A DNA stretch of 64,000 bases, taken from Candidatus Entotheonellaceae bacterium. Lineage in GTDB: Bacteria; Tectomicrobia; Entotheonellia; Entotheonellales; Entotheonellaceae. This document shows positions 4,779 to 32,100 of this stretch, piece after piece (the stretch's first letter is position 1; every line of letters begins with the position of its first letter). The stretch spans positions 576,001 to 640,000 of the forward strand of contig OZ250173.1 of the NCBI GenBank assembly GCA_965238075.1, read 5' to 3'. The position numbers were made by a program, and so were the translations under genes. The notes beneath the pieces are model-generated. The model was not told the origin of the DNA. It saw only the letters and a list, made by a program, of their open reading frames with translations, and ran no database searches.

Positions 4779-5693
4779 TCACTTTGATACCAAGAATTTC
4801 TCGAACTCCAGGTCGAGTTCGAATCTTGGCCACAACCGCGAGACCAACCGTTGCGGATCGGCATTGATACGATCGATGAAGGCTTTGCAGGCATCAAAGA
4901 GATGGCGCATGGAGGCATGACAGAAATTGCGCGTCACCTCTTCGCGCATCCACTTCCAGAGACCTTCAATCGGATTCAGGTCTGGGCTATAGCTTGGCAG
5001 AGCGACCAACGTGAAGCCCAATTCCGAAGCCGCCGCTTGCACACGCTTGGCCTTGTGCCACGGGGCGCCGTCCCAGATGAGTACGACCTCACCAGGCTCA
5101 TCACCCATCCAAGCGGCAACGTGGTGTAAGAATTCGATCGTATGGGCTTGGTTACAGGAGCCCTCGTTCCAGATGAAACACTGGCCGCAGGAGAAATCGT
5201 AGGCGCCATACCAGTTGATGCGTTCAGCCAAAGAGGCACAGCCGCTCAGACGCCAAGCGGGTTTGCCCTCGGGCGCCCAGGTGTAGCCCAGGTCCATATC
5301 GCGGTGCAGATGGGCTTCATCGATATAGAGCAAGCGGATATCCCGGCGACAAAGCCGCGCCAACAATTCCTGGAATTGTTGGACAAAGGCGGCACGACGT
5401 TGCGGGTCGGCCTTCTTGAGCACTTTTTGGCATTTCTTCCAACTCAGTCTTTGAGCCCGCAGGACTCGGTGCAAGGTCGTGCGGCTGCATGCGTAGCCGA
5501 TGACCTGTTCAAGCCAACGTCGCAACTTTTTCAAGGTCCAGGCATGGCCTGGCAGGCCATGGTCGAGCGGGTCGGTCTCGACGACCGTGCGGACGAGTTG
5601 ATCGAGTTGCTCTTGGCCAAAAGGGGGTGGCGGCCTCCGGTGTGACGATAGATGACGCCCGCGAGGCCGGCCAAATTGTAACGATGCACCCAA
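4779..5693 (-). CDS. IS630 transposase, HTH + DDE catalytic part (OrfB)
   Basis: YIDEAH, LIWDGAPWH and LPSYSPDLNPIEGLW motifs. Confidence 0.9.
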   Translation of the reverse strand: MGASLQFGRPRGRHLSSHRRPPPPFGQEQLDQLVRTVVETDPLDHGLPGHAWTLKKLRRWLEQVIGYACSRTTLHRVLRAQRLSWKKCQKVLKKADPQRRAAFVQQFQELLARLCRRDIRLLYIDEAHLHRDMDLGYTWAPEGKPAWRLSGCASLAERINWYGAYDFSCGQCFIWNEGSCNQAHTIEFLHHVAAWMGDEPGEVVLIWDGAPWHKAKRVQAAASELGFTLVALPSYSPDLNPIEGLWKWMREEVTRNFCHASMRHLFDACKAFIDRINADPQRLVSRLWPRFELDLEFEKFLVSK

Positions 5694-6977: not shown

Positions 6978-7307
6978 CTATCGTCCAAGTGCCGCCTGTT
7001 CCACTGTTTCGGTCAGCCAGGCGTTGAGGCTCTTGCCTGCGCCCTTGGCAGCTGCGGCTGCGGCCCGATGGACCTCCGGCGGGACCCGCAGGGGAATCTT
7101 CCCGGAGAAGGGCTTGTCCGGCTGACGTCCTCGCTCGGCGCAGACGGTCAGATAATCGTCGATAGAGAACCGAAATTCCTTCTGCAGTTGTTCGACGGAC
7201 GTTCCCTCAAACGTGATGACGTCCCGAGTGTCGACCACTTCGCCGTGAAAAATACCGGCCTCGTCGTCGTATACCACTGCCGCCCGATATCCTTTGTACT
7301 CCATCAT
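6978..7307 (-). CDS. hicB: HicB-family antitoxin
   Basis: MEYKGY...FHGEV....DVITFEG...KPFSGKIPLRVPPEVH with a C-terminal RHH. Confidence 0.9.
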   Translation of the reverse strand: MMEYKGYRAAVVYDDEAGIFHGEVVDTRDVITFEGTSVEQLQKEFRFSIDDYLTVCAERGRQPDKPFSGKIPLRVPPEVHRAAAAAAKGAGKSLNAWLTETVEQAALGR

Positions 7308-10183: not shown

Positions 10184-10975
10184 TCAAGGCTGGCGCTCGA
10201 AAGTGATGCGCGTACCGACCGGCGCGTTGATCTGCGCCGACGCGTTGCCCTGCGTCAGGGCGATCTCCAGGGTATCGTTGCTGCTGACGAGCGCCACGAG
10301 CTCCCCTCGCGGCTGGTTGCCATAGGTGGCGCAAAAGGGCACCGTCCAGCGTCGTTCGTCGATCGTAAACGAGACATTCTGGCCGACCTGTAACCCCGGC
10401 AGCAGTTCTGGGGTGACGTTGGTGACGGCGTTACCGAAATGGTCGACATGTACGACTTCGCCCATCGCAGCTTGGCCAACTGCGCGCGGTGGACTGACAG
10501 GGAAGGTGACCAAGTCTTCCACAGGCGGCCCGAAATCAGCCGCCGACACCCCACTGGCAAGATGTGCTGCCACCGGAGCAAAGATATCTCGCCCATGAAA
10601 GGTCGACGAAATCCGAGGCCGAAAATAGGCGCTCTCCGTCAACTCGTAAGCCTCGCGCAGCCCGTGTGCTGTCAGTACGTGCGTGAACACGCCGTTATCC
10701 GGCCCGACGAACCACCTATCAGATTGTGCCGCGCACAGCACCGGGCGCCGCGTCGTGCCGACGCCGGGATCGACCACCGTTACCACGATGCTGCCGGCCG
10801 GCAGATAGCGGCTCGACGCCTCCAGCAAATAAGCTGCTTGGCGCACGTTGAACGCCGCCACCTCGTGATTGAGATCAATCACCGTCAGGGCCGCATTGAT
10901 GCTCAGAATGACGCCCTTCATCTGCGCCACGTAAGCATCCCGCACCCCAAAATCGGTGAACAACGCAATCAGCAT
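10184..10975 (-). CDS. SAM hydroxide adenosyltransferase (DUF62; chlorinase/fluorinase superfamily)
   Basis: TDFG, VVDPGVGTTRR, GPDNG, STFHGRDIF and DHFGN motifs. Confidence 0.88.
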   Translation of the reverse strand: MLIALFTDFGVRDAYVAQMKGVILSINAALTVIDLNHEVAAFNVRQAAYLLEASSRYLPAGSIVVTVVDPGVGTTRRPVLCAAQSDRWFVGPDNGVFTHVLTAHGLREAYELTESAYFRPRISSTFHGRDIFAPVAAHLASGVSAADFGPPVEDLVTFPVSPPRAVGQAAMGEVVHVDHFGNAVTNVTPELLPGLQVGQNVSFTIDERRWTVPFCATYGNQPRGELVALVSSNDTLEIALTQGNASAQINAPVGTRITFERQP

Positions 10976-22850: not shown

Positions 22851-24152
22851 ATGAACGTCCACACTTGGCGCCTGGAGATCGGCACCTTCCCTGTGCGGCG
22901 CCTTGCCTTTGCCTCCCGAACCGCCTACGAAAACGGCACCCTGTTCATCGACGACGCGGAACTCCAGACCCGCATCGCCAAGCCCGCTGCTGTTGCCGAT
23001 ATCGCCGTGCATCTTGCCCACCCGGGTGAATCGTGCCGCATCGTGCACGTTCTGGATGCCGTATCGCCAATGGTCAAAGTAACCGGCCGGTCAACGGTCT
23101 ATCCCGGCTTTTTCGATTCCGCGTCGCCGGCCGGCAGCGGCCGAACCCACGTGTTGACGGACGCCGCGGTGCTGGTCAGCGGCACGTTTCCGGAACCGAC
23201 CAGCGGCGCCCTGTCGGCGGCCGAGGCCACCGTCGACATGAGCGGGCCGGCAACGGCTTGCTGCCCCTTTTCGGACACCGCCAACGTGGTCCTGGTCTGC
23301 CGCCCGGCCCCCGGCGCCAGCAATGCCGATTTCGATGCCGCCCTGCACCGCGTCAAGCTCAAAGCGGCGGTGTATCTGGCCGAGGCCACCGTAGAGCTTG
23401 AGCCGCCGCAGACCGACGTGTACGACTTGCAGCCCGTTGACGACGCCCTGCCCCGCGTTGTTTTCCTGGATCAACTCCACCAGCAGGGCCTGCTGGCGCA
23501 GACGTTCCTGTACGGCCGGCACACGCAGGGGCTGGAGCCAACCCTGCTGCACCCGAACGAAATGCTCGACGGCGCCCTGGTCAGCGGCAACTACCGGCAG
23601 CCGGGGCGCTCGATCACCTACGGACACAGCCGCAACGACGTGGTGCGCGAGCTTTACGGGCGCCACGGCCGGGATCTCAACTTCCTCGGCGTGGTGGTTG
23701 GCCGCGGCTGGCAAGACACGCAGGCGCTGAAGGAACGCCAGGGCTGCATGATGGCGCGCCTCGCCAGCCTGCTGGGCGCGCAAGTGGCCATCGTGTCCGC
23801 GGACGTCGGCGGCACCGGCGGCAACAATACCATCGACTTCATGCAGACCATCAAGGCTTGCGAGCAACTGGGCATTCGCACCGTCGCCATCATGCAGGAG
23901 GCAGGCAACGCCGACGGCAGTAATCCGACCCTCGTCGATCATGTGCCGGAAGCCGATGCGCTCGTCAGCGTCGGTGGTGTCGGCTGGGACATCCCGTTAG
24001 CCCCCGCGGTGTCGCGCGTCATCGGCGGCGCCACCGTGCAGCCGAACCGGGCGCAGGAACCCCTGGATGCCGCCGGGCCGCTGCACGTCGCGTGCTGGTA
24101 CGGTGCCGTATGGAAGCGTACGTTCCAAGGTCTGTCGGCGGTGGACGCCTGA
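22851..24152 (+). CDS. Glycine/sarcosine/betaine reductase component B alpha/beta-like subunit (GrdE/G/I-like)
   Basis: PGESCRI, DMSGP..PFS, FLYG...PTLLHPNEMLDGALVSGN and LYGRHG.DLNFLGVV; RBS GAGG. Confidence 0.85.
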   Translation: MNVHTWRLEIGTFPVRRLAFASRTAYENGTLFIDDAELQTRIAKPAAVADIAVHLAHPGESCRIVHVLDAVSPMVKVTGRSTVYPGFFDSASPAGSGRTHVLTDAAVLVSGTFPEPTSGALSAAEATVDMSGPATACCPFSDTANVVLVCRPAPGASNADFDAALHRVKLKAAVYLAEATVELEPPQTDVYDLQPVDDALPRVVFLDQLHQQGLLAQTFLYGRHTQGLEPTLLHPNEMLDGALVSGNYRQPGRSITYGHSRNDVVRELYGRHGRDLNFLGVVVGRGWQDTQALKERQGCMMARLASLLGAQVAIVSADVGGTGGNNTIDFMQTIKACEQLGIRTVAIMQEAGNADGSNPTLVDHVPEADALVSVGGVGWDIPLAPAVSRVIGGATVQPNRAQEPLDAAGPLHVACWYGAVWKRTFQGLSAVDA

Positions 24153-24162
24153 TCCTCAGGAC

Positions 24163-24327
24163 TAGAGCATTTTAAGGTTGAAAAGAATCAGGGTTCATAC
24201 TGCCCATCACTCCGGCGAAAGCCGGAGTCCAGAGGTTTTCGGACTTACAACGGCCCTGGATTCCGGCATGCGCCGGAATGACGCTACGGTAACCTTGTAT
24301 GGCGCTAATCAATCTTGAACTGCTGTA
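24163..24327. mobile_element. MITE-like element with a REP-like hairpin, between the grdE- and grdB-like genes
   Basis: TAGAGCATTTTAAGGTTGAAAAG...TCTTGAACTGCTGTA; inverted relative of 7906-8095. Confidence 0.65.
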
Positions 24328-24340
24328 AAGGACAACACGC

Positions 24341-25699
24341 ATGACTGCTGACACCACTCGGCCCTTGCGCCTGGTACATTACATAAACGCCTTTTTCGGC
24401 GGCATTGGCGGCGAGGCCGAGGCGCATCACGCCGTGCAGACGCACGCGGGGCCACTGGGGCCGGGAATGCTCTTGCAGCAATTATGCGGCGGGCAGGCCG
24501 AGGTCATCGGCACCGTGGTGTGCGGCGACGGCTACTTCGGCGAGCACGAGGAAGCCGTGGTGGAGCGGGTCCGGCAATACGTGCGACAGCAGGGCGCCGA
24601 TGCCTTCATCGCCGGCCCGGCCTTCGGCTCCGGACGGTACGGGCTAGCCTGTGGCCGGCTGTGCCTGGAGGTCGAGCGCCTGGGAATTCCCGCGCTTACC
24701 GGCCTGCACATCGAGAACCCGGGCGGCGAGGTGTTCCTGCCGCAGCACATCTTCGCCGTGAGCACCACGGCCAGCGCTGCCGGCATGCAACCAGCCTTGC
24801 AGCGCATGGCCGCCCTGACGCTCAAACGCGCCCGCGGCGACTCCCTCGGCTCGGCGGCGCAGGAAGGCTTTCTGCCGCGCGACGTGCGCCGCACCGTGGA
24901 CACCGGCCTACCGGCGGCTAGGCGGGCCGTGGACCTCGCCCTACGCAAGTGGAAAGGCGAGCCCTACGCCAGCGAAATTACCGTTGAGACCTTCGAGCCG
25001 GTGCCGCCGCCGCCGCCGCTTGCCGACCCGAGCCGCACCCGCTTTGCATTGGTCACCGAGTGCGGCCTGGTGCCCAAGGGCAACCCCGACCGCCTGCCCG
25101 CCGCCGGCGCCAGCCACTGGGCCGCCTATGCCATTGGCGACATGCAACACTTGATGCCCGGCGACTGGGATATCGTGCACGGCGGCTATGACAACACCGC
25201 GGCGCTGCTGGACCCGAATCGCGTCGTGCCTCTGGATGCCATGCGCGCCCTACAGCGGGAGGGGATCATCGGCGGGCTGTTGGACGACCTGCTGGTCACC
25301 GTCGGCAATCTTGCCAGCCTCAGCGCCATGAAGAAAATCGGCGCCGAAATGGCCGCCACCCTGAAGCAGCGCGGCGTCGGCGCCGTCGTGCTGCCGGCGA
25401 CGTGAGGCACCGGCACGCGTAGCGGTGCTACGATCGCCAAAGCCTGCGAACGCGAGGGCATTCCCACCGCCCTGGCCACCTGTCTTTACACCGTCGCAAC
25501 GCGCGTCGGCGCCAACCGCATCGTGCGCGGCGGGCGTTTCCACCATCCCTTCGGCGATCCGGAGGACCCGCCGGCGGCGCAATACGCCTGGCGCCGCGCG
25601 TTTGTCGAGCGCCTGCTGCACGCCCTGCGCACGCCGGTCGAGAAGCCGACCGTGTTCGACGTCGAACCACCGGCGCACGCCCCTGGATCACCCATCTGA
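24341..25699 (+). CDS. Glycine/sarcosine/betaine reductase selenoprotein B-like subunit (Sec at UGA 25403-25405), 452 aa
   Basis: HYIN.FFGGIGGE, CGDGYF, AGPAF..GRYG, VPKGNPD, HGGYD and DPNRVVPLD; homology continues past the UGA (GTGTRSGATIAK...VGANRIV...HPFGDP) to a stop at 25697-25699. Confidence 0.9.
25412..25438 (+). promoter_or_regulatory. Candidate bacterial SECIS element
   Basis: GGC-ACG-CGTAGC-GGT-GCTACG-ATC-GCC hairpin; G-rich loop 19 nt after the UGA. Confidence 0.7.
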
Positions 25700-25714
25700 G
25701 CAAACGGAGAACCC

Positions 25715-26086
25715 ATGATCGACGTCACCGTCTACAAATTCATCCACTTCCTCGGTATCATCATGATCTTCGTCAGCCTCGGCGGCGTCATGGTGCACGT
25801 CTTCAACGGCGGCGCCAAGGCCGACAACGTCTGGCGCAAGCCGGCGGGCATCACGCACGGCATCGGGCTGCTTCTCGTCCTCCTCGGCGGCTTCGGCATG
25901 ATGGCGCGGCTCGGCATTCCGTGGCCGTGGCCGGGCTGGTTGTTCGTCAAATTGGCGGTCTGGCTGCTTCTGGGCGGCATCACGGGCCTCCTGTACCGCC
26001 TCGGGACGAGCGGCAAGAGCCTGTGGGTCGTGGTGATGCTGCTCGGCGCTATCGCCGCGTTCATGGGCATCATGAAGCCGTTCTGA
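25715..26086 (+). CDS. Small 4-TM membrane protein (SirB2-like)
   Basis: YKFIH, HGIGL..L..GFG and W.FVKL..W; RBS GGAG. Confidence 0.75.
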   Translation: MIDVTVYKFIHFLGIIMIFVSLGGVMVHVFNGGAKADNVWRKPAGITHGIGLLLVLLGGFGMMARLGIPWPWPGWLFVKLAVWLLLGGITGLLYRLGTSGKSLWVVVMLLGAIAAFMGIMKPF

Positions 26087-26159
26087 TTGGCTATCCGGGC
26101 ACGGGATTCAACAATGGCTTTACAGGCAACATGCGGGTGATGAAAATGGATTTGGTTTC

Positions 26160-26231
26160 TGCGGCGAAAGCCGGGACAGAGACGTTCAGAGGACAGAGGT
26201 CGCAGGATTCCGGTGTTCGCCGGAATGACAT
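26160..26231. repeat. Degenerate REP-like palindrome (GCCGGAATGAC family)
   Basis: CGGCGAAAGCCG...GATTCCGGTGTTCGCCGGAATGAC. Confidence 0.6.
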
Positions 26232-26272
26232 TTCGGGGCGTTGAGCGGTCCTCTCAGTAAAGGAAATAACAC

Positions 26273-28243
26273 ATGGCAGTCGTCCAACTCGACATCTCAC
26301 AGCGCCAGCCGTTTGCCGCCGGCGAGGCGTTCGACACGGTGGGGCCGTACGAATTCCTGCAAGGCACGGCGCACTTCGCGGTGGACCCGTTACACCCGCG
26401 TAACGCCGCCATCACGGACTTGGAGTTGGCCCCGCGCCAGGCGGACGGAACAGTGGCGTTCTCGGCCGGATTCGCCATGCTGCAGCCCGCAGACGCCGGG
26501 CGCGGCAACCGCCGGATGTTTTTTGACGTGATGAACCGCGGGCGCAAAACGGTTTTGCAGCGCTTTAACGACGCGCCGGATATTGTCGATCACAGCCTGC
26601 CGCCCAGGCCGGGGAACGGCTTCCTCATGCGCCGGGGCTACACCGTGGTGTGGTGCGGCTGGCAGGCCGACGTGCCGCCGACCCCAGGTCTGATGGGCCT
26701 GCAAGCACCGGAAGCTCTCGGACGGCAAGGCTCGCTGCAAGGGCGAATCCTGTGCCAGTTCCAGGTCAACGAATCGACGCCGCAATTGCTTCTTTCCGAC
26801 CGCGAGCACACGCCGCATCCGGCCGCCGACATCAACGAGGCTGGCGCGCTGTTGCAGGTGCGCGACCACCCCAACGCGCCGGCCACCGAAATTCCGCGCG
26901 CGGCGTGGTCCTTCGTGCAGACGGAGGGCGACGCGGCACCCCATTACGTGCACCTGCACGCCGGTTTCGAACCGGGGCGCATTTACCAACTGGTGTACAC
27001 GACGCGCGGCAGCCGCATCGTCGGGCTCGGCTTCGCGGCGGTGCGCGACATCGCCTCGTTCCTGAAGCACGGCAGCGCGGACGACGGCAACCCTTGCGCC
27101 GGCCGGCTGGACTACGCCTACGCCTTCGGTGCCTCGCAGAGCGGCCGGTTCCTGCGGCAGATGCTCTATCACGGCCTGGTGGAAGATGAGTCGGAACGGC
27201 TGGCGCTGGACGGCGTCATCCCGCACGTGGCGGGCGGCATGCGCGGCGAGTTTAATCTGCGCTTCGGCCAGCCCTCAAAAGACGTTTGCTTCATCATCCC
27301 GGAGATGTTTCCGTTCACCGACACGTCGCAGACCGACCCGCTCACGGGCCGATGCGGCGCCCTGCTGACAAACCTGGAAGCGCGTGGCAAGGTGACCAAA
27401 GTCATGTTCACCAACACCTCGGCAGAATACTGGCGCGGCGACGCGGCGCTCATCCACACCAACCTGGACACGATGCGCGACCAGGCGGAGTCGCCATTGG
27501 TGCGGCGCTACCATTTCGCCGGCACCCACCACACCTCGGGGCTATTCCCCCTCGCCGGATGGCGGGCCGCCGACGGCATGCGCGGGCAACTGCCGTTCAA
27601 CACGGTCGATTTCAACCCGCTCCTACGCGCTGCCCTGATCAACCTCGACCGCTGGGCCAGCGAGGGGGTACCGGCTCCCGCCAGCCGCCACCCGTCCCTG
27701 GATGACGGCACCAGCGTGCCTTCCGACAGCCTTGCGGCGGCCTTCGCCAAGCTGCCGGGCGTGCGCTTTCCACCCCAGGTGACGCGGGCGCTGCGCCTCG
27801 ACTACGGCCCCGAAACCGAGAACGGCCGCACGGTGCGTCTGCCGGCCGGTGAGGGAGAGACGTACCCGGCGCTGGTTTCCGACGTGGATGCCGACGGCAA
27901 CGAACGCGCCGGTATTCGCCTGCCCGACCTCAGCGTGCCGCTGGCCACCCACACCGGCTGGAACCTGCGCCACGAGGCCGTCGGCAACCCGGACCTGGTG
28001 ATTGGCATTACGGGGGGATTGGCCGGCTGGACCCTGCCGTTCACCGCCACCCGCGACGACCGCGAGACGGGCGACCCGCGCCCGTCCATCGACGAACGCT
28101 ATTCATCCCGCGAGGAATACCTCAGCCGCGTACGCGCCGCCACCCAGGAGCTCATCGCCGGGGGCTACGTGCTGGCGGAGGATTTGCCCCGCATCGTGGC
28201 CGCGGCGAGCACCCGCTACGACGCCTTCAGACATGGGAAGTGA
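26273..28243 (+). CDS. Large alpha/beta-hydrolase-domain protein
   Basis: NRGRK, W.GWQ.D, FGASQSGRFLR nucleophile elbow, AEYW and DGNE..GIRLP. Confidence 0.8.
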   Translation: MAVVQLDISQRQPFAAGEAFDTVGPYEFLQGTAHFAVDPLHPRNAAITDLELAPRQADGTVAFSAGFAMLQPADAGRGNRRMFFDVMNRGRKTVLQRFNDAPDIVDHSLPPRPGNGFLMRRGYTVVWCGWQADVPPTPGLMGLQAPEALGRQGSLQGRILCQFQVNESTPQLLLSDREHTPHPAADINEAGALLQVRDHPNAPATEIPRAAWSFVQTEGDAAPHYVHLHAGFEPGRIYQLVYTTRGSRIVGLGFAAVRDIASFLKHGSADDGNPCAGRLDYAYAFGASQSGRFLRQMLYHGLVEDESERLALDGVIPHVAGGMRGEFNLRFGQPSKDVCFIIPEMFPFTDTSQTDPLTGRCGALLTNLEARGKVTKVMFTNTSAEYWRGDAALIHTNLDTMRDQAESPLVRRYHFAGTHHTSGLFPLAGWRAADGMRGQLPFNTVDFNPLLRAALINLDRWASEGVPAPASRHPSLDDGTSVPSDSLAAAFAKLPGVRFPPQVTRALRLDYGPETENGRTVRLPAGEGETYPALVSDVDADGNERAGIRLPDLSVPLATHTGWNLRHEAVGNPDLVIGITGGLAGWTLPFTATRDDRETGDPRPSIDERYSSREEYLSRVRAATQELIAGGYVLAEDLPRIVAAASTRYDAFRHGK

Positions 28244-29151: not shown

Positions 29152-32100
29152 CTACACCCTGCCGGCGACACTAACGCCTGTCCAGTTTGGTGATGGTTTT
29201 TTCGTCGTTTCGGCGATCCGCCGGGCCGTGTCGCTGCCGTGCTGGACTTCGCCGGGCTTGACCGGGCGGCCGAGGATGGCGCCCTCGCGATACGAGAGCC
29301 ACTTCTTGAGCACCTGGTAGCCGCCGAGCCAGTAGTTCCAGATGGCAGCAGGAATGTTGCGCCAGTAGGCGCGGGCGTTGAGATACACGTCGAACGTGGT
29401 TTCGCCGAGCCCTGGCAGTGCGCCCCCCATCGCCATCCGTTCCGCCGGGGTGAAAGCCCTCTCCACGGCGCGGCCCTGTCCAGGCATCACCGCGTCGCCT
29501 GATCCGAAATGACCCCATCCCGCGGTCACCGCGAAATCCTCGCCCGTCATGTTGCGCCCGTCGGTCGTGGCGGGCACGGCGATGACGGCCATCTCCGGGC
29601 GCAGTGGCGCTTGGGTGACGCCCGGAACCGGCGTGTCGGGATTGAGGAGAGCCGCGAGTTGGCGTCCGCGCGCTGCGGATTCAACGAGCGCTTCCGCCGC
29701 CCCGTTGGCCTCGCCGTCTGGCCAGCCCGGAAGCAGGATGCGCGGCCCCTCAGCTCGCAGCGCATCGGCGTTAAGCTCGTTGTAGGCGAGATCATGGAGT
29801 ACGGCAACGACGTGGTAAAACAGGTTTTCCACGCCCGCGTCCAAACGACCGAGATAACGTTGCGCTGCTCCCGAAAGATTGGGACGGCGACTTGCTTCCC
29901 TGCTGTTGGCTCCGAGACCATCATCGGTTAACTGCACAGGGACACAATACACACCGCTGTTCATCTGATTCAGGTCGCCGATACTGGAAATAACCAGCGG
30001 TGGCGACAGGTCCGGCCGTGCCTTGTTTTGTAGGACCATCCACGCGTTCCCCTCGAAAACATGCGGCCGGTAATCGGCTCGCTTCTCGTCCAGCAGCTTC
30101 GTTTCCGCCTCCCAATAAAGCCACCGGTTGTCGAACGGCCGGTAGGCAAAGCGTACGAAACCGGTCTCATCCGGCCCGCCGCGTTTCAGCAGGGTATCGC
30201 GCACCGCTCGGGCATCAAACCGTGCTGTGGCCTTCATCGCCCCTGGATAGCGCCGCGCGATTTCCTCATGGCTCAGGCCCGCGTCGAAGTAATCGGCGAC
30301 GCGCGCCCGGAGCCGGTCCAAGTCGACGTCGACGAGAAACCCGTCACGGCTGGTCTTGACGCCAGGATACGACACCGGAAACAAATCGGGCAGGGACGGC
30401 CACTCGAACCACGCATCGCTCACCGCGGTTCGCACGAACGGCAGGCCGAGCGGCAAGACGGGCTTGACGCCTTCGTAAAGCGCGTCCGGCTCCGACTCAG
30501 CCGTTGCGATTAACTCCGCCGGCTTGGCCTGACCCCAGAGGTGCCGGAAGCCAACTGAATCCGCGGGCGCGTGGTCGGCCTTGCGCACCAGCGTCGTGAT
30601 GGCGGTGCCGACCTGAATGCCCACCGGATCGCCTGCCGTCGAGAATATGCTCGGGTCCGGCGAGCCATCCGGCGCCACCTTGCCGGTCTTGTATTTGTCG
30701 CCGTTCAGGCAGTCGATGCGGATGGCGTCGAACGCCTCCAGATAACGTTCCCGCATGCCCGTGAACGACAACCCGTCGAGCCACGAGTAGTTGGAGATGA
30801 AGCACACCACGCCCTGGCCCGTCTTGTCGGCGATGCGCCGTTCCGCCATGCGGAAGAAACGGACGTAGAGGTCGTTCAAACCCTTTCCTTCGGGGCGGCG
30901 TACTCGCTTCGTCGAGCGGTACGCTTGCGACAGTTCGCGCTCCTCGTCCATCGCCATGCCGGCAAAGCCGTTGTAGGGCGGATTGCCAAGGATGACGAGG
31001 ATCGGCGTTACCTGCTTGACCCGCTCCGCCCGGTCGCGCTCCTCCTCCAGTTCCGGGAAGGGCAGCGGCTTGGTCGTTCTCGGCTCCCAGCCGGTGAGCG
31101 CATTGGTGAGGAACACGCCGGCGCGTTCGGTTTCGTCGTCCGCCAGCGGCGCGCCGAGGTCCTGCAGGGCCAAGCCGACTTGCAGATGGGCGACGACGAA
31201 GGGGGCCGGCATGATCTCGAAGCCGAACACCCGTTGCGTCGCCGCCTGTTTCACCCGCGCGCCGGTGAGCGCCCCAAGGCCCTGCCCTTCGAGGTTGGCG
31301 GCGATGCGGCGCAGCACTTCGGCCAGATACGCGCCGGTGCCGCAGCACGGGTCGAGCACGTAGACGTTTTCCGCGGCGAGACCGTCCGGGATGCCAAGAT
31401 CGTCCTTCAGCGCCTTGTCCACGCGGGCGACCATGTAGCCGAACCACTTCGGTTGGCGTGTACCAGACGCCGAGTTGCTTGCGCAGGTCGGGATCGAAGG
31501 CTTCGAGGAAGGGTTCGTAGAAGTAAGGCACCGCCTCGCCCTCCTGGAAGCGGGCAAAGAAGGCGGGACGATCCACCCGGTCGAGCGCTGCCGCGGTCCA
31601 GTCCAGCACCTCGACGAGGCCGAGCGGCTGCAGGCGGCCGGGGTCGGAAAGTTGCTGGAACAACGCCCGCAACACGGGCGCGCGCAGATACCAGACCGCG
31701 GTGTGCCAGTCGAACGCACCGGTCGGCGGCGGCAGTTGTCGCGCCCACAACACCCAGGCGGAGAAAATGCCGTAGAACAGGGTCTGCACCAGGGTTGAAT
31801 GGAAGAAGTGCGCGCCGCGCTCTCCCTCAAACCGGACGCCGAGCGCCTCTTCCAAGGCGGAGCGCACTGCCTGGAGCGGCGCATCCCCCGCCGACTCAAC
31901 ACGGGCGAGGCCGTCGCGGGCGTAGGAAGCGAGCAGCCACGCTAAGTCCTTCGGTTCGGCCAGCGCCGCCCGGTGCGACAAGGCGCGGGCGAGATATTCG
32001 CCGAGTCCGGCGCCCACGTCACGGGCGAAGGCGCGCGGCTTATCCAATTTGCGAAGGAAGTCCTCCGCGTTGTCGGCCAGCCGGAAAGTTTCGAGCTTCG

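Follow-up and report, generated by a model that had tools for sequence, protein, structure and literature searches.

The Grd-type selenoenzymes of the textbooks serve strict anaerobes that ferment amino acids. In the published pattern, several substrate-specific protein B modules share one GrdA and protein C (PMC10838667). Glycine reductase GrdB/GrdE bears selenocysteine (Sec, written U) in a UxxCxxC motif and has a partner proprotein that is cleaved at an SGN-C site. The paper on fluoroacetate reductase by Leong et al. (2023) describes the CxxC as protecting Sec from oxidation (PMC10838667), and a review considers that GrdA likely interacts with this motif. By the same published account, the partners GrdI and FarE are unprocessed and pyruvoyl-free protein B subunits, FarE lacking the processing cysteines as GrdI does; FarB lacks the CxxC, and FarB/FarE of Cloacibacillus porcorum is reported to feed GrdA (PMC10838667). 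Because FarB/FarE shows both departures as described there, a cysteine-poor, unprocessed B module is already in print as a concept. Here we describe a cysteine-poor pair of this family in a 64,000-nucleotide stretch (the window) of a Candidatus Entotheonellaceae genome, positions 576001-640000 of a single contig of 3.35 Mb and 62% G+C (G000:C1). The pair consists of two co-oriented genes, a partner gene (22851-24152) followed by a GrdB-family selenoprotein gene (24341-25699). We favor the view, at a probability of roughly 0.6, that it is a substrate-specific, unprocessed protein B module feeding GrdA and GrdC, that it represents a distinct, conserved clade, and that its substrate would be a derivative of acetate from which a leaving group departs readily. 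The novelty lies in the clade itself, which is uncharacterised.

Selenocysteine codon and motifs of the pair

The open reading frame (ORF) at 24341-25405 ends at a TGA, and its in-frame continuation to a TGA stop at 25697-25699 yields a protein of 452 amino acids containing LPAT-U-G-T-G-T-R-S-G-A-T-I-A-K, with Sec at position 355 (U355). The first-pass annotation of this DNA had noticed U-G-T-G-T-R-S in place of U-x-x-C-x-x-C, and the read-through bears this out. The protein belongs to the GrdB/GrdF/GrdH/PrdB superfamily by its scores on PF07355 (381.7 bits, cut-off 22) and TIGR01918 (386.4 bits, cut-off 65.45), by a UGA at the conserved position with a selenocysteine insertion sequence (SECIS) hairpin, and by an adjacent PF09338 partner gene. 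The hairpin has 6-7 bp and a GGN loop, begins 14-15 nt past the UGA, and runs across the codons that formerly specified the CxxC. In a comparison of 31 distinct sequences, pairing holds for 98.2% of the cells of the 7-bp helix, and three of its seven pairs have changed in both strands (18 cells). The observed pairing or covariation was not matched in any of 500 shuffles, and slid registers paired at most 55% of cells. When the gene is compared with paralogue L007 of the same genome, the 5' arm shows a Cys-to-Ser codon change (TGC>AGC) and the 3' arm a matching synonymous change (GCA>GCU). Both UxxCxxC paralogues in this genome have the same hairpin architecture, and the genome carries selA and selB at one site, 1.025-1.029 Mb. 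A covarying hairpin, paired beyond all shuffles, follows the UGA, which is therefore no mere chance occurrence and is read as selenocysteine.

The region beyond Sec is under evident conservation. In a scan that took one genome per prokaryotic species, 38 related loci were recovered, and all of them conserve the 97 codons downstream of the UGA in frame. A cysteine at position 381 (codon at about 25481-25483) occurs in 38 of 42 clade rows, as against none of the 25 rows from the Cys-keeping (UxxCxxC-type) classes. The sequence F-H-H-P-F-G is present in 42/42 clade rows and forms part of F-H-H-P-F-G-D-P at residues 400-407 of the window protein (about 25538-25561), where the genome's UxxCxxC paralogues and their closest relatives read E/P-H-V-C-G-D-P. 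The two post-Sec cysteines of the textbook enzymes are dispensable in this clade; that Cys381 or the His-His loop takes over any role of the CxxC is speculative. A whole-protein database search returned only forms ending at Sec, the best 120 homologues all stopping at the Sec codon with lengths of 323-357 amino acids, and database searches with the C-terminal region gave one and nine matches, none with an informative name. No solved structure was found for either subunit.

Two short PrdB-like ORFs with an in-frame TGA were also observed in the window genome, at 2.3256 Mb (L009:7426-8433, + strand) and 2.9479 Mb (L010:7151-8347, - strand). They read VPA-U-PVC and TPT-U-PLC, respectively, and are candidate small selenoproteins; akin partial matches to PF07355 were present in four of the five other genomes searched (G001, G002, G004, and G005).

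The partner subunit reads DGALVSGN-YRQPGRS where glycine reductase proproteins are cleaved, as the first-pass annotation had pointed out in setting SGN-YRQPG against the canonical SGN-CVSAC. The canonical form proved uniform in the 41 metagenome loci whose GrdB reads U-G-T-C-T-R-C, every partner there having SGN-CVS[A/S]C-DKN. At the processing column, 40 aligned clade partners have Tyr (N-Y, 38), His (N-H, 1), or Phe (N-F, 1), and none has Cys, Ser, or Thr. The best NCBIfam matches of the window partner are GrdG (255 bits, cut-off 780) and FarE (151 bits, cut-off 675). Among 1.84 billion representatives scanned, 1076 relatives of the partner were detected at E<=0.001. In an alignment of 176 rows, made of the best full-length representatives and the related loci, this column is occupied by Tyr 104 times, by Phe 16 times, and by Cys just 7 times; lack of the Cys is thus the usual condition among relatives of the partner. 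In the window genome, the partners of both UxxCxxC paralogues are also without the Cys site. A partner without Cys, Ser, or Thr at the processing column should be unable to cleave itself at a Cys, and the unprocessed, pyruvoyl-free protein B that had been proposed for this pair therefore remains the natural reading.

The clade and its relation to GrdA and GrdC

Five of the 38 related loci belong to Candidatus Entotheonella or Tectimicrobiota metagenome-assembled genomes (MAGs), are 88-95% identical, and share the gene order of the window. The remaining 33 are 42-51% identical and come from MAGs titled Nitrospinota, Nitrospinaceae, Dehalococcoidia, Acidobacteriota, Tectomicrobia, or simply "bacterium". 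The TGA at the shared column is followed by G-T-G-T-R-S in 36 loci and by G-S-G-T-R-S in two, and the partner gene lies upstream in 37/38, the exception being interrupted by a contig end. Within the phylum of the window genome, family members were found in 16 of 17 species genomes, all with one TGA, and their motifs fall into the classes U-G-[T/S]-C-N-R-C, U-G-T-G-T-R-S, and U-G-T-S-T-R-S. The last of these, S-T-U-G-T-S-T-R-S in L055-L058, also lacks both cysteines and forms a clade of its own, which a metagenome sequence (L098, U-G-T-S-T-R-C) joins; its partners score 139-153 bits on the FarE model, below the cut-off.

A metagenome scan added 80 loci, and 51 of its 54 distinct full-length sequences were scored (L087, L140, and L155 were omitted). 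The cut-off of the glycine reductase GrdB equivalog (602 bits) was passed by 45 of these 51 at 638-789 bits, and none reached the cut-off for GrdF or GrdH. All 45 have Cys at both positions after Sec (UGTCTRC in 44, UGSCTRC in one). In a first maximum-likelihood tree, the 42 of 71 rows on one side of a branch, with support of 99 in the Shimodaira-Hasegawa-like approximate likelihood ratio test (SH-aLRT), were all U-G-[T/S]-G-T-R-S sequences. A second tree, which also contained labelled GrdB references, was built from a less redundant set of 64 out of 133 rows with both motif positions masked; the clade again occupied one side of a branch (20/64 rows, SH-aLRT 98). It stood apart from the GrdB-equivalog group (28 rows, 99), from a U-G-T-S-T-R-[S/C] group (4 rows, 98), and from the U-x-x-C-N-R-C group that is home to the window genome's two other paralogues, both trees being unrooted and made by quick search. 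A literature search found no description of the U-G-T-G-T-R-S clade; subscription papers were outside its scope, and trees in the supplements of PMC10838667 and PMC9751293 might show it.

The window pair resembles GrdB/GrdE (TIGR01917) in fold family, Sec position, SECIS placement, and gene pairing, and its clade relatives have GrdA and GrdC partners. It departs from that system in both motifs, U-G-T-G-T-R-S standing for UxxCxxC and SGN-Y for SGN-C, and the selenoprotein scores 355.2 bits against the GrdB equivalog cut-off of 602.2. When the published GrdB sequence motif was taken from the Methods of Nobu et al. (2022; PMC9751293), the window protein had two of its six elements, and the full motif was found in 0/44 clade rows versus 52/53 UGTCTRC rows. 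The published GrdF motif likewise matched none of the 44 clade rows. On the sarcosine reductase models the pair stays well below the thresholds, with 407.1 bits for GrdF (NF040794, cut-off 800) and 255.4 bits for GrdG (NF040793, cut-off 780), and the D-proline reductase model for PrdB/PrdA (TIGR04483) gives 81.2 bits against 300.

The genes for the other components lie elsewhere in the genome. As first noted, no grdA, grdC, grdD, or thioredoxin gene flanks the pair, and this extends to the whole 64 kb (Pfam on 54 ORFs and NCBIfam on eight of them); all thioredoxin-family matches are outside the window, the nearest PF00085 match being about 50 kb beyond it. The genome has exactly one grdA, with one TGA (PF04723, 197 bits; NF040748, 206.6 bits), and a grdC scoring 604.9 bits on NF040746 (cut-off 450), so that both GrdA and GrdC are genome-encoded. 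These two genes are located at 1.385-1.387 Mb, about 790 kb from the pair, and adjoin a UxxCxxC paralogue. A full grdACD locus elsewhere had been raised as a possibility, and it holds for grdA and grdC but not for grdD: the GrdD model (NF040747, cut-off 350) has no match at E<=0.001 in this genome, which is 93% complete. Without GrdD, the textbook protein C is incomplete in this lineage and the pathway may end differently.

The genome contains three full-length paralogues. The two besides the window protein (L007 at 1.388 Mb and L008 at 2.597 Mb) are 40-41% identical to it and share its SECIS architecture and Cys-less partners; unlike the window protein, they retain U-G-[T/S]-C-N-R-C and H-V-C-G-D-P. 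L007 (U-G-T-C-N-R-C) is the one followed by its partner, grdC, and grdA. Near L008, a reductive-dehalogenase-like gene was observed at L008:13651-14898 (+) with 113 bits on TIGR02486 (below the cut-off of 160), beside a luciferase-like monooxygenase and an alpha/beta hydrolase.

In the distant loci, the layout is different. A tblastn search located grdA, with its own TGA, in 26 of these 33 loci and grdC in 23, and the usual order is grdC-grdA-partner-GrdB-like. Of the seven loci without grdA, four are from Dehalococcoidia and three lie on contigs too short for a decision. In all four genomes behind grdA-linked loci that we scanned, the U-G-T-G-T-R-S gene is the sole full-length PF07355 match and adjoins the sole grdA. 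One Dehalococcoidia genome has two unlinked U-G-T-G-T-R-S pairs and a single grdA beside a third paralogue, and thereby mirrors the unlinked layout of the window genome. Every one of the six pair-carrying genomes tested (G000 to G005) has one grdA. Gene order in relatives thus points to a link of the pair with GrdA and GrdC. Since relatives adjoin grdA or grdC and the window genome carries both elsewhere, the pair is not a GrdA-independent, stand-alone new system.

Proposed mechanism and competing explanations

The mechanism that we propose follows the scheme of Andreesen, as summarised in PMC13188914 and PMC10838667. The partner would remain uncleaved and would carry no pyruvoyl group; no Schiff base would then form, and the leaving group of the substrate would have to depart on direct attack of Sec355 at C2. 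The substrate would accordingly be neither glycine nor sarcosine and should be an acetate with a good leaving group at C2, for example an onium or a halide. By analogy with GrdB, Sec355 would attack C2, expel the leaving group, and become Se-carboxymethylated. The carboxymethyl group would next pass to the Sec of the GrdA encoded about 790 kb away beside the UxxCxxC paralogue. GrdC would convert it to an acetyl thioester, and oxidised GrdA would be re-reduced by the thioredoxin system, again by analogy.

Several observations weigh against this proposal. In the window, in the five closest relatives, and in the four Dehalococcoidia loci, grdA and grdC are not adjacent to the pair, and we infer the use of a distant GrdA in the window genome. 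GrdD scored only 18-31 bits in G001-G005 and reached its cut-off in none of the six genomes. Apart from grdC and grdA, no gene for transport or catabolism is common to the 12 annotated loci. Moreover, the apparent separation of the clade from GrdH, GrdF, and FarB is drawn from hidden Markov model (HMM) scores, not from the trees.

A more specific form of the proposal may be put forward only tentatively, as we consider it rather improbable as a whole. The clade, acting with GrdC and GrdA but without GrdD, would be a distinct cysteine-poor Grd-type selenoenzyme whose bacterial hosts are mostly aerobic and live in the sea, with sponges, or in soil. It would reduce a non-amine or onium acetate, such as a haloacetate or a sulfonium or arsonium betaine, the acetyl group would be released other than as GrdD-made acetyl phosphate, and Cys381 would replace the CxxC.

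It is also conceivable, though doubtful, that the pair is this lineage's glycine-betaine reductase, with the function of GrdH/GrdI, releasing trimethylamine and feeding GrdA and GrdC. Betaine is abundant in marine and sponge-associated environments, and it is there that record titles and run labels place the hosts. GrdH/GrdI is likewise one of several protein B modules that are served by a common GrdA and GrdC, and an unprocessed, carbonyl-free partner is a published hallmark of GrdI (PMC10838667) that the clade seems to share when its partners are read from sequence. Some database homologues even bear the Joint Genome Institute (JGI) name "betaine reductase"; however, these names alternate with "glycine reductase" and therefore look automatic. 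The clade differs from GrdH/GrdI in the absence of both post-Sec cysteines and in having no linked betaine transporter: Pfam found no BCCT transporter among the 54 window ORFs, and neither there nor at the 12 annotated loci does the pair have a BCCT/OpuD-type gene as its neighbour. The window protein scores 362.2 bits on the GrdH model (NF040795, cut-off 775), whereas five true GrdB sequences, the only others with GrdH scores listed, reach 586-599 bits, which places the window protein further from GrdH than those sequences are. Nesting within characterised betaine reductases, which the first-pass annotation had named as a possible outcome, was not seen by these HMM scores.

The first-pass annotation itself preferred an orphan selenoenzyme in which Sec is the sole nucleophile and is possibly resolved by a partner other than GrdA. 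Such an enzyme would work without GrdA and GrdC, and the small four-transmembrane (4-TM) protein encoded next to the pair might, for example, be the resolving partner. This explanation accounts readily for the absence of grdA, grdC, and trx from the 64-kb window, for a 4-TM gene that begins 15 nt downstream, and for the unlinked layout that recurs in the five nearest relatives and in Dehalococcoidia. It fares poorly beyond them, where most distant loci place grdA next to the pair, where the U-G-T-G-T-R-S protein is the only protein B beside the only grdA in 4/4 genomes, and where the 4-TM and hydrolase genes are missing from all 33 distant loci; the single grdA of each tested genome also speaks against it, and we regard it as quite unlikely.

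Slightly less likely still is a haloacetate reductive dehalogenase module of the FarB/FarE type. By published description, FarB/FarE shares both departures with the window pair, the exact motif of FarB standing outside this comparison, and expulsion of a halide requires no Schiff base (PMC10838667). However, the window partner obtains 151 bits and the other clade partners 137-149 bits on the FarE model (NF053623), far below its cut-off of 675. The described system has the farA antiporter and the farC radical S-adenosylmethionine (SAM) gene as neighbours, but no gene of either type adjoins the pair, whether in the window or at any of the 12 annotated loci, and the FarB/FarE hosts belong to different phyla than the clade hosts. 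On these sequence grounds, the window pair is not an orthologue of FarB/FarE.

Finally, a decaying or split pseudogene in which the UGA is a true stop was rejected as next to impossible, since, although gene callers end the protein at 354 amino acids, the altered motifs suspected of being unique to this copy are kept in 38/38 loci, the downstream codons stay in frame, the FHHPFG columns are invariant, the SECIS hairpin covaries, and the Sec machinery is present.

Genomic setting and significance

The features of the locus are collected in Table 1. An NAD synthase gene lies upstream of the pair on the opposite strand. The 4-TM gene and the large alpha/beta hydrolase gene follow the pair as had been described, but their linkage is confined to the five closest relatives (5/38 loci). 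As this synteny is limited to one lineage, a functional linkage of the two genes to the pair was rejected, and they offer no functional clue. The 4-TM protein has a weak SirB match (PF04247, 20.4 bits, below the cut-off of 30.9), and its nearest atlas clusters are hypothetical, DUF2878, or SirB-like. Neighbours across the 12 annotated loci vary and include SSF, ABC, TctABC, SDR, PrpD, coenzyme A-transferase, and hydantoinase genes.

Table 1. Coordinates of the pair and its immediate surroundings in the window.
Feature	Position	Strand	Evidence and remarks
Partner subunit, GrdE/GrdI-like, 433 amino acids	22851..24152	+	PF09338, 339 bits; SGN-Y, without Cys self-cleavage site
Spacer between the pair genes	24153..24340		Copy of a dispersed repeat of ~80 nt
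GrdB-family selenoprotein, 452 amino acids, U355 in PAT-U-G-T-G-T-R-S	24341..25699	+	PF07355, TIGR01918
In-frame UGA, selenocysteine	25403..25405	+	TGA at the identical column in 38/38 related loci
SECIS-type hairpin CGUAGC-GGU-GCUACG	25417..25433 (core stem 25418-25432)	+	Fold and covariation
Small 4-TM membrane protein, 123 amino acids	25715..26086	+	Begins 15 nt past the stop; lineage-specific neighbour
Abhydrolase_10 alpha/beta hydrolase, 656 amino acids	26273..28243	+	PF20091, 139.9 bits; lineage-specific neighbour

A blastn search of the genome with the spacer gave 45 further matches at about 82% identity, and a weaker relative of the repeat follows the 4-TM gene (26087-26272). Pair spacing is only about 27 nt in most Entotheonella-type relatives. 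In several Nitrospinota-type loci, the partner and Sec genes are 0.5-2.5 kb apart (L036, L044, and L054, with gaps also in L041, L045, L049, L050, and L053), which suggests that the pair tolerates splitting; the inserts in the three annotated split loci hold DNA-methylase- or PIN-type genes or ORFs without a family match.

Metatranscriptomic libraries from two studies contain contigs that cover this region at 95-99% identity and bridge the UGA. One of 3247 nt spans 24224-27457 in each of two runs, and shorter contigs across the UGA cover 25307-25945 and 25232-25685. These contigs are a weak hint of transcription, since carry-over of DNA is possible, and they carry no information on strand, ends, or level. 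Such contigs were also seen to break or jump between the ~80 nt repeats, and contig depth spikes at 24153-24340.

Other observations concern the wider window. A SAM hydroxide adenosyltransferase family gene (PF01887/PF20257) is present at 10187-10975 (-), 12 kb upstream of the pair; this family includes fluorinase and chlorinase. The window also encodes a Type ISP restriction-modification enzyme at 29152-31902 (-), a DDE_3 transposase at 4782-5693 (-), and a HicB antitoxin at 6981-7307 (-), and its 4-8 kb segment has a lower G+C content of 54-56%.

Genes of this clade are routinely ended at the UGA and labelled "glycine reductase" or "betaine reductase", and neither label is borne out by the family thresholds. 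What emerges is a conserved branch that keeps selenocysteine while dropping the post-Sec CxxC, the pyruvoyl-forming cysteine of the partner, and GrdD. Its members come from MAGs labelled Nitrospinota, Tectimicrobiota/Entotheonella, Dehalococcoidia, and Acidobacteriota. In the four genomes where it is the sole protein B, the compound that it reduces would be the reason why two selenoproteins and the Sec machinery are kept. If this substrate were identified, the chemistry known for the Sec-dependent reduction of C-X bonds would be broadened, and it would become clear which of the residues near Sec the hand-over to GrdA really requires. If the tentative version, a cysteine-poor enzyme working without GrdD, were true, the clade would represent a new reaction class and a new ecological role of Sec enzymes outside the anaerobic fermenters.

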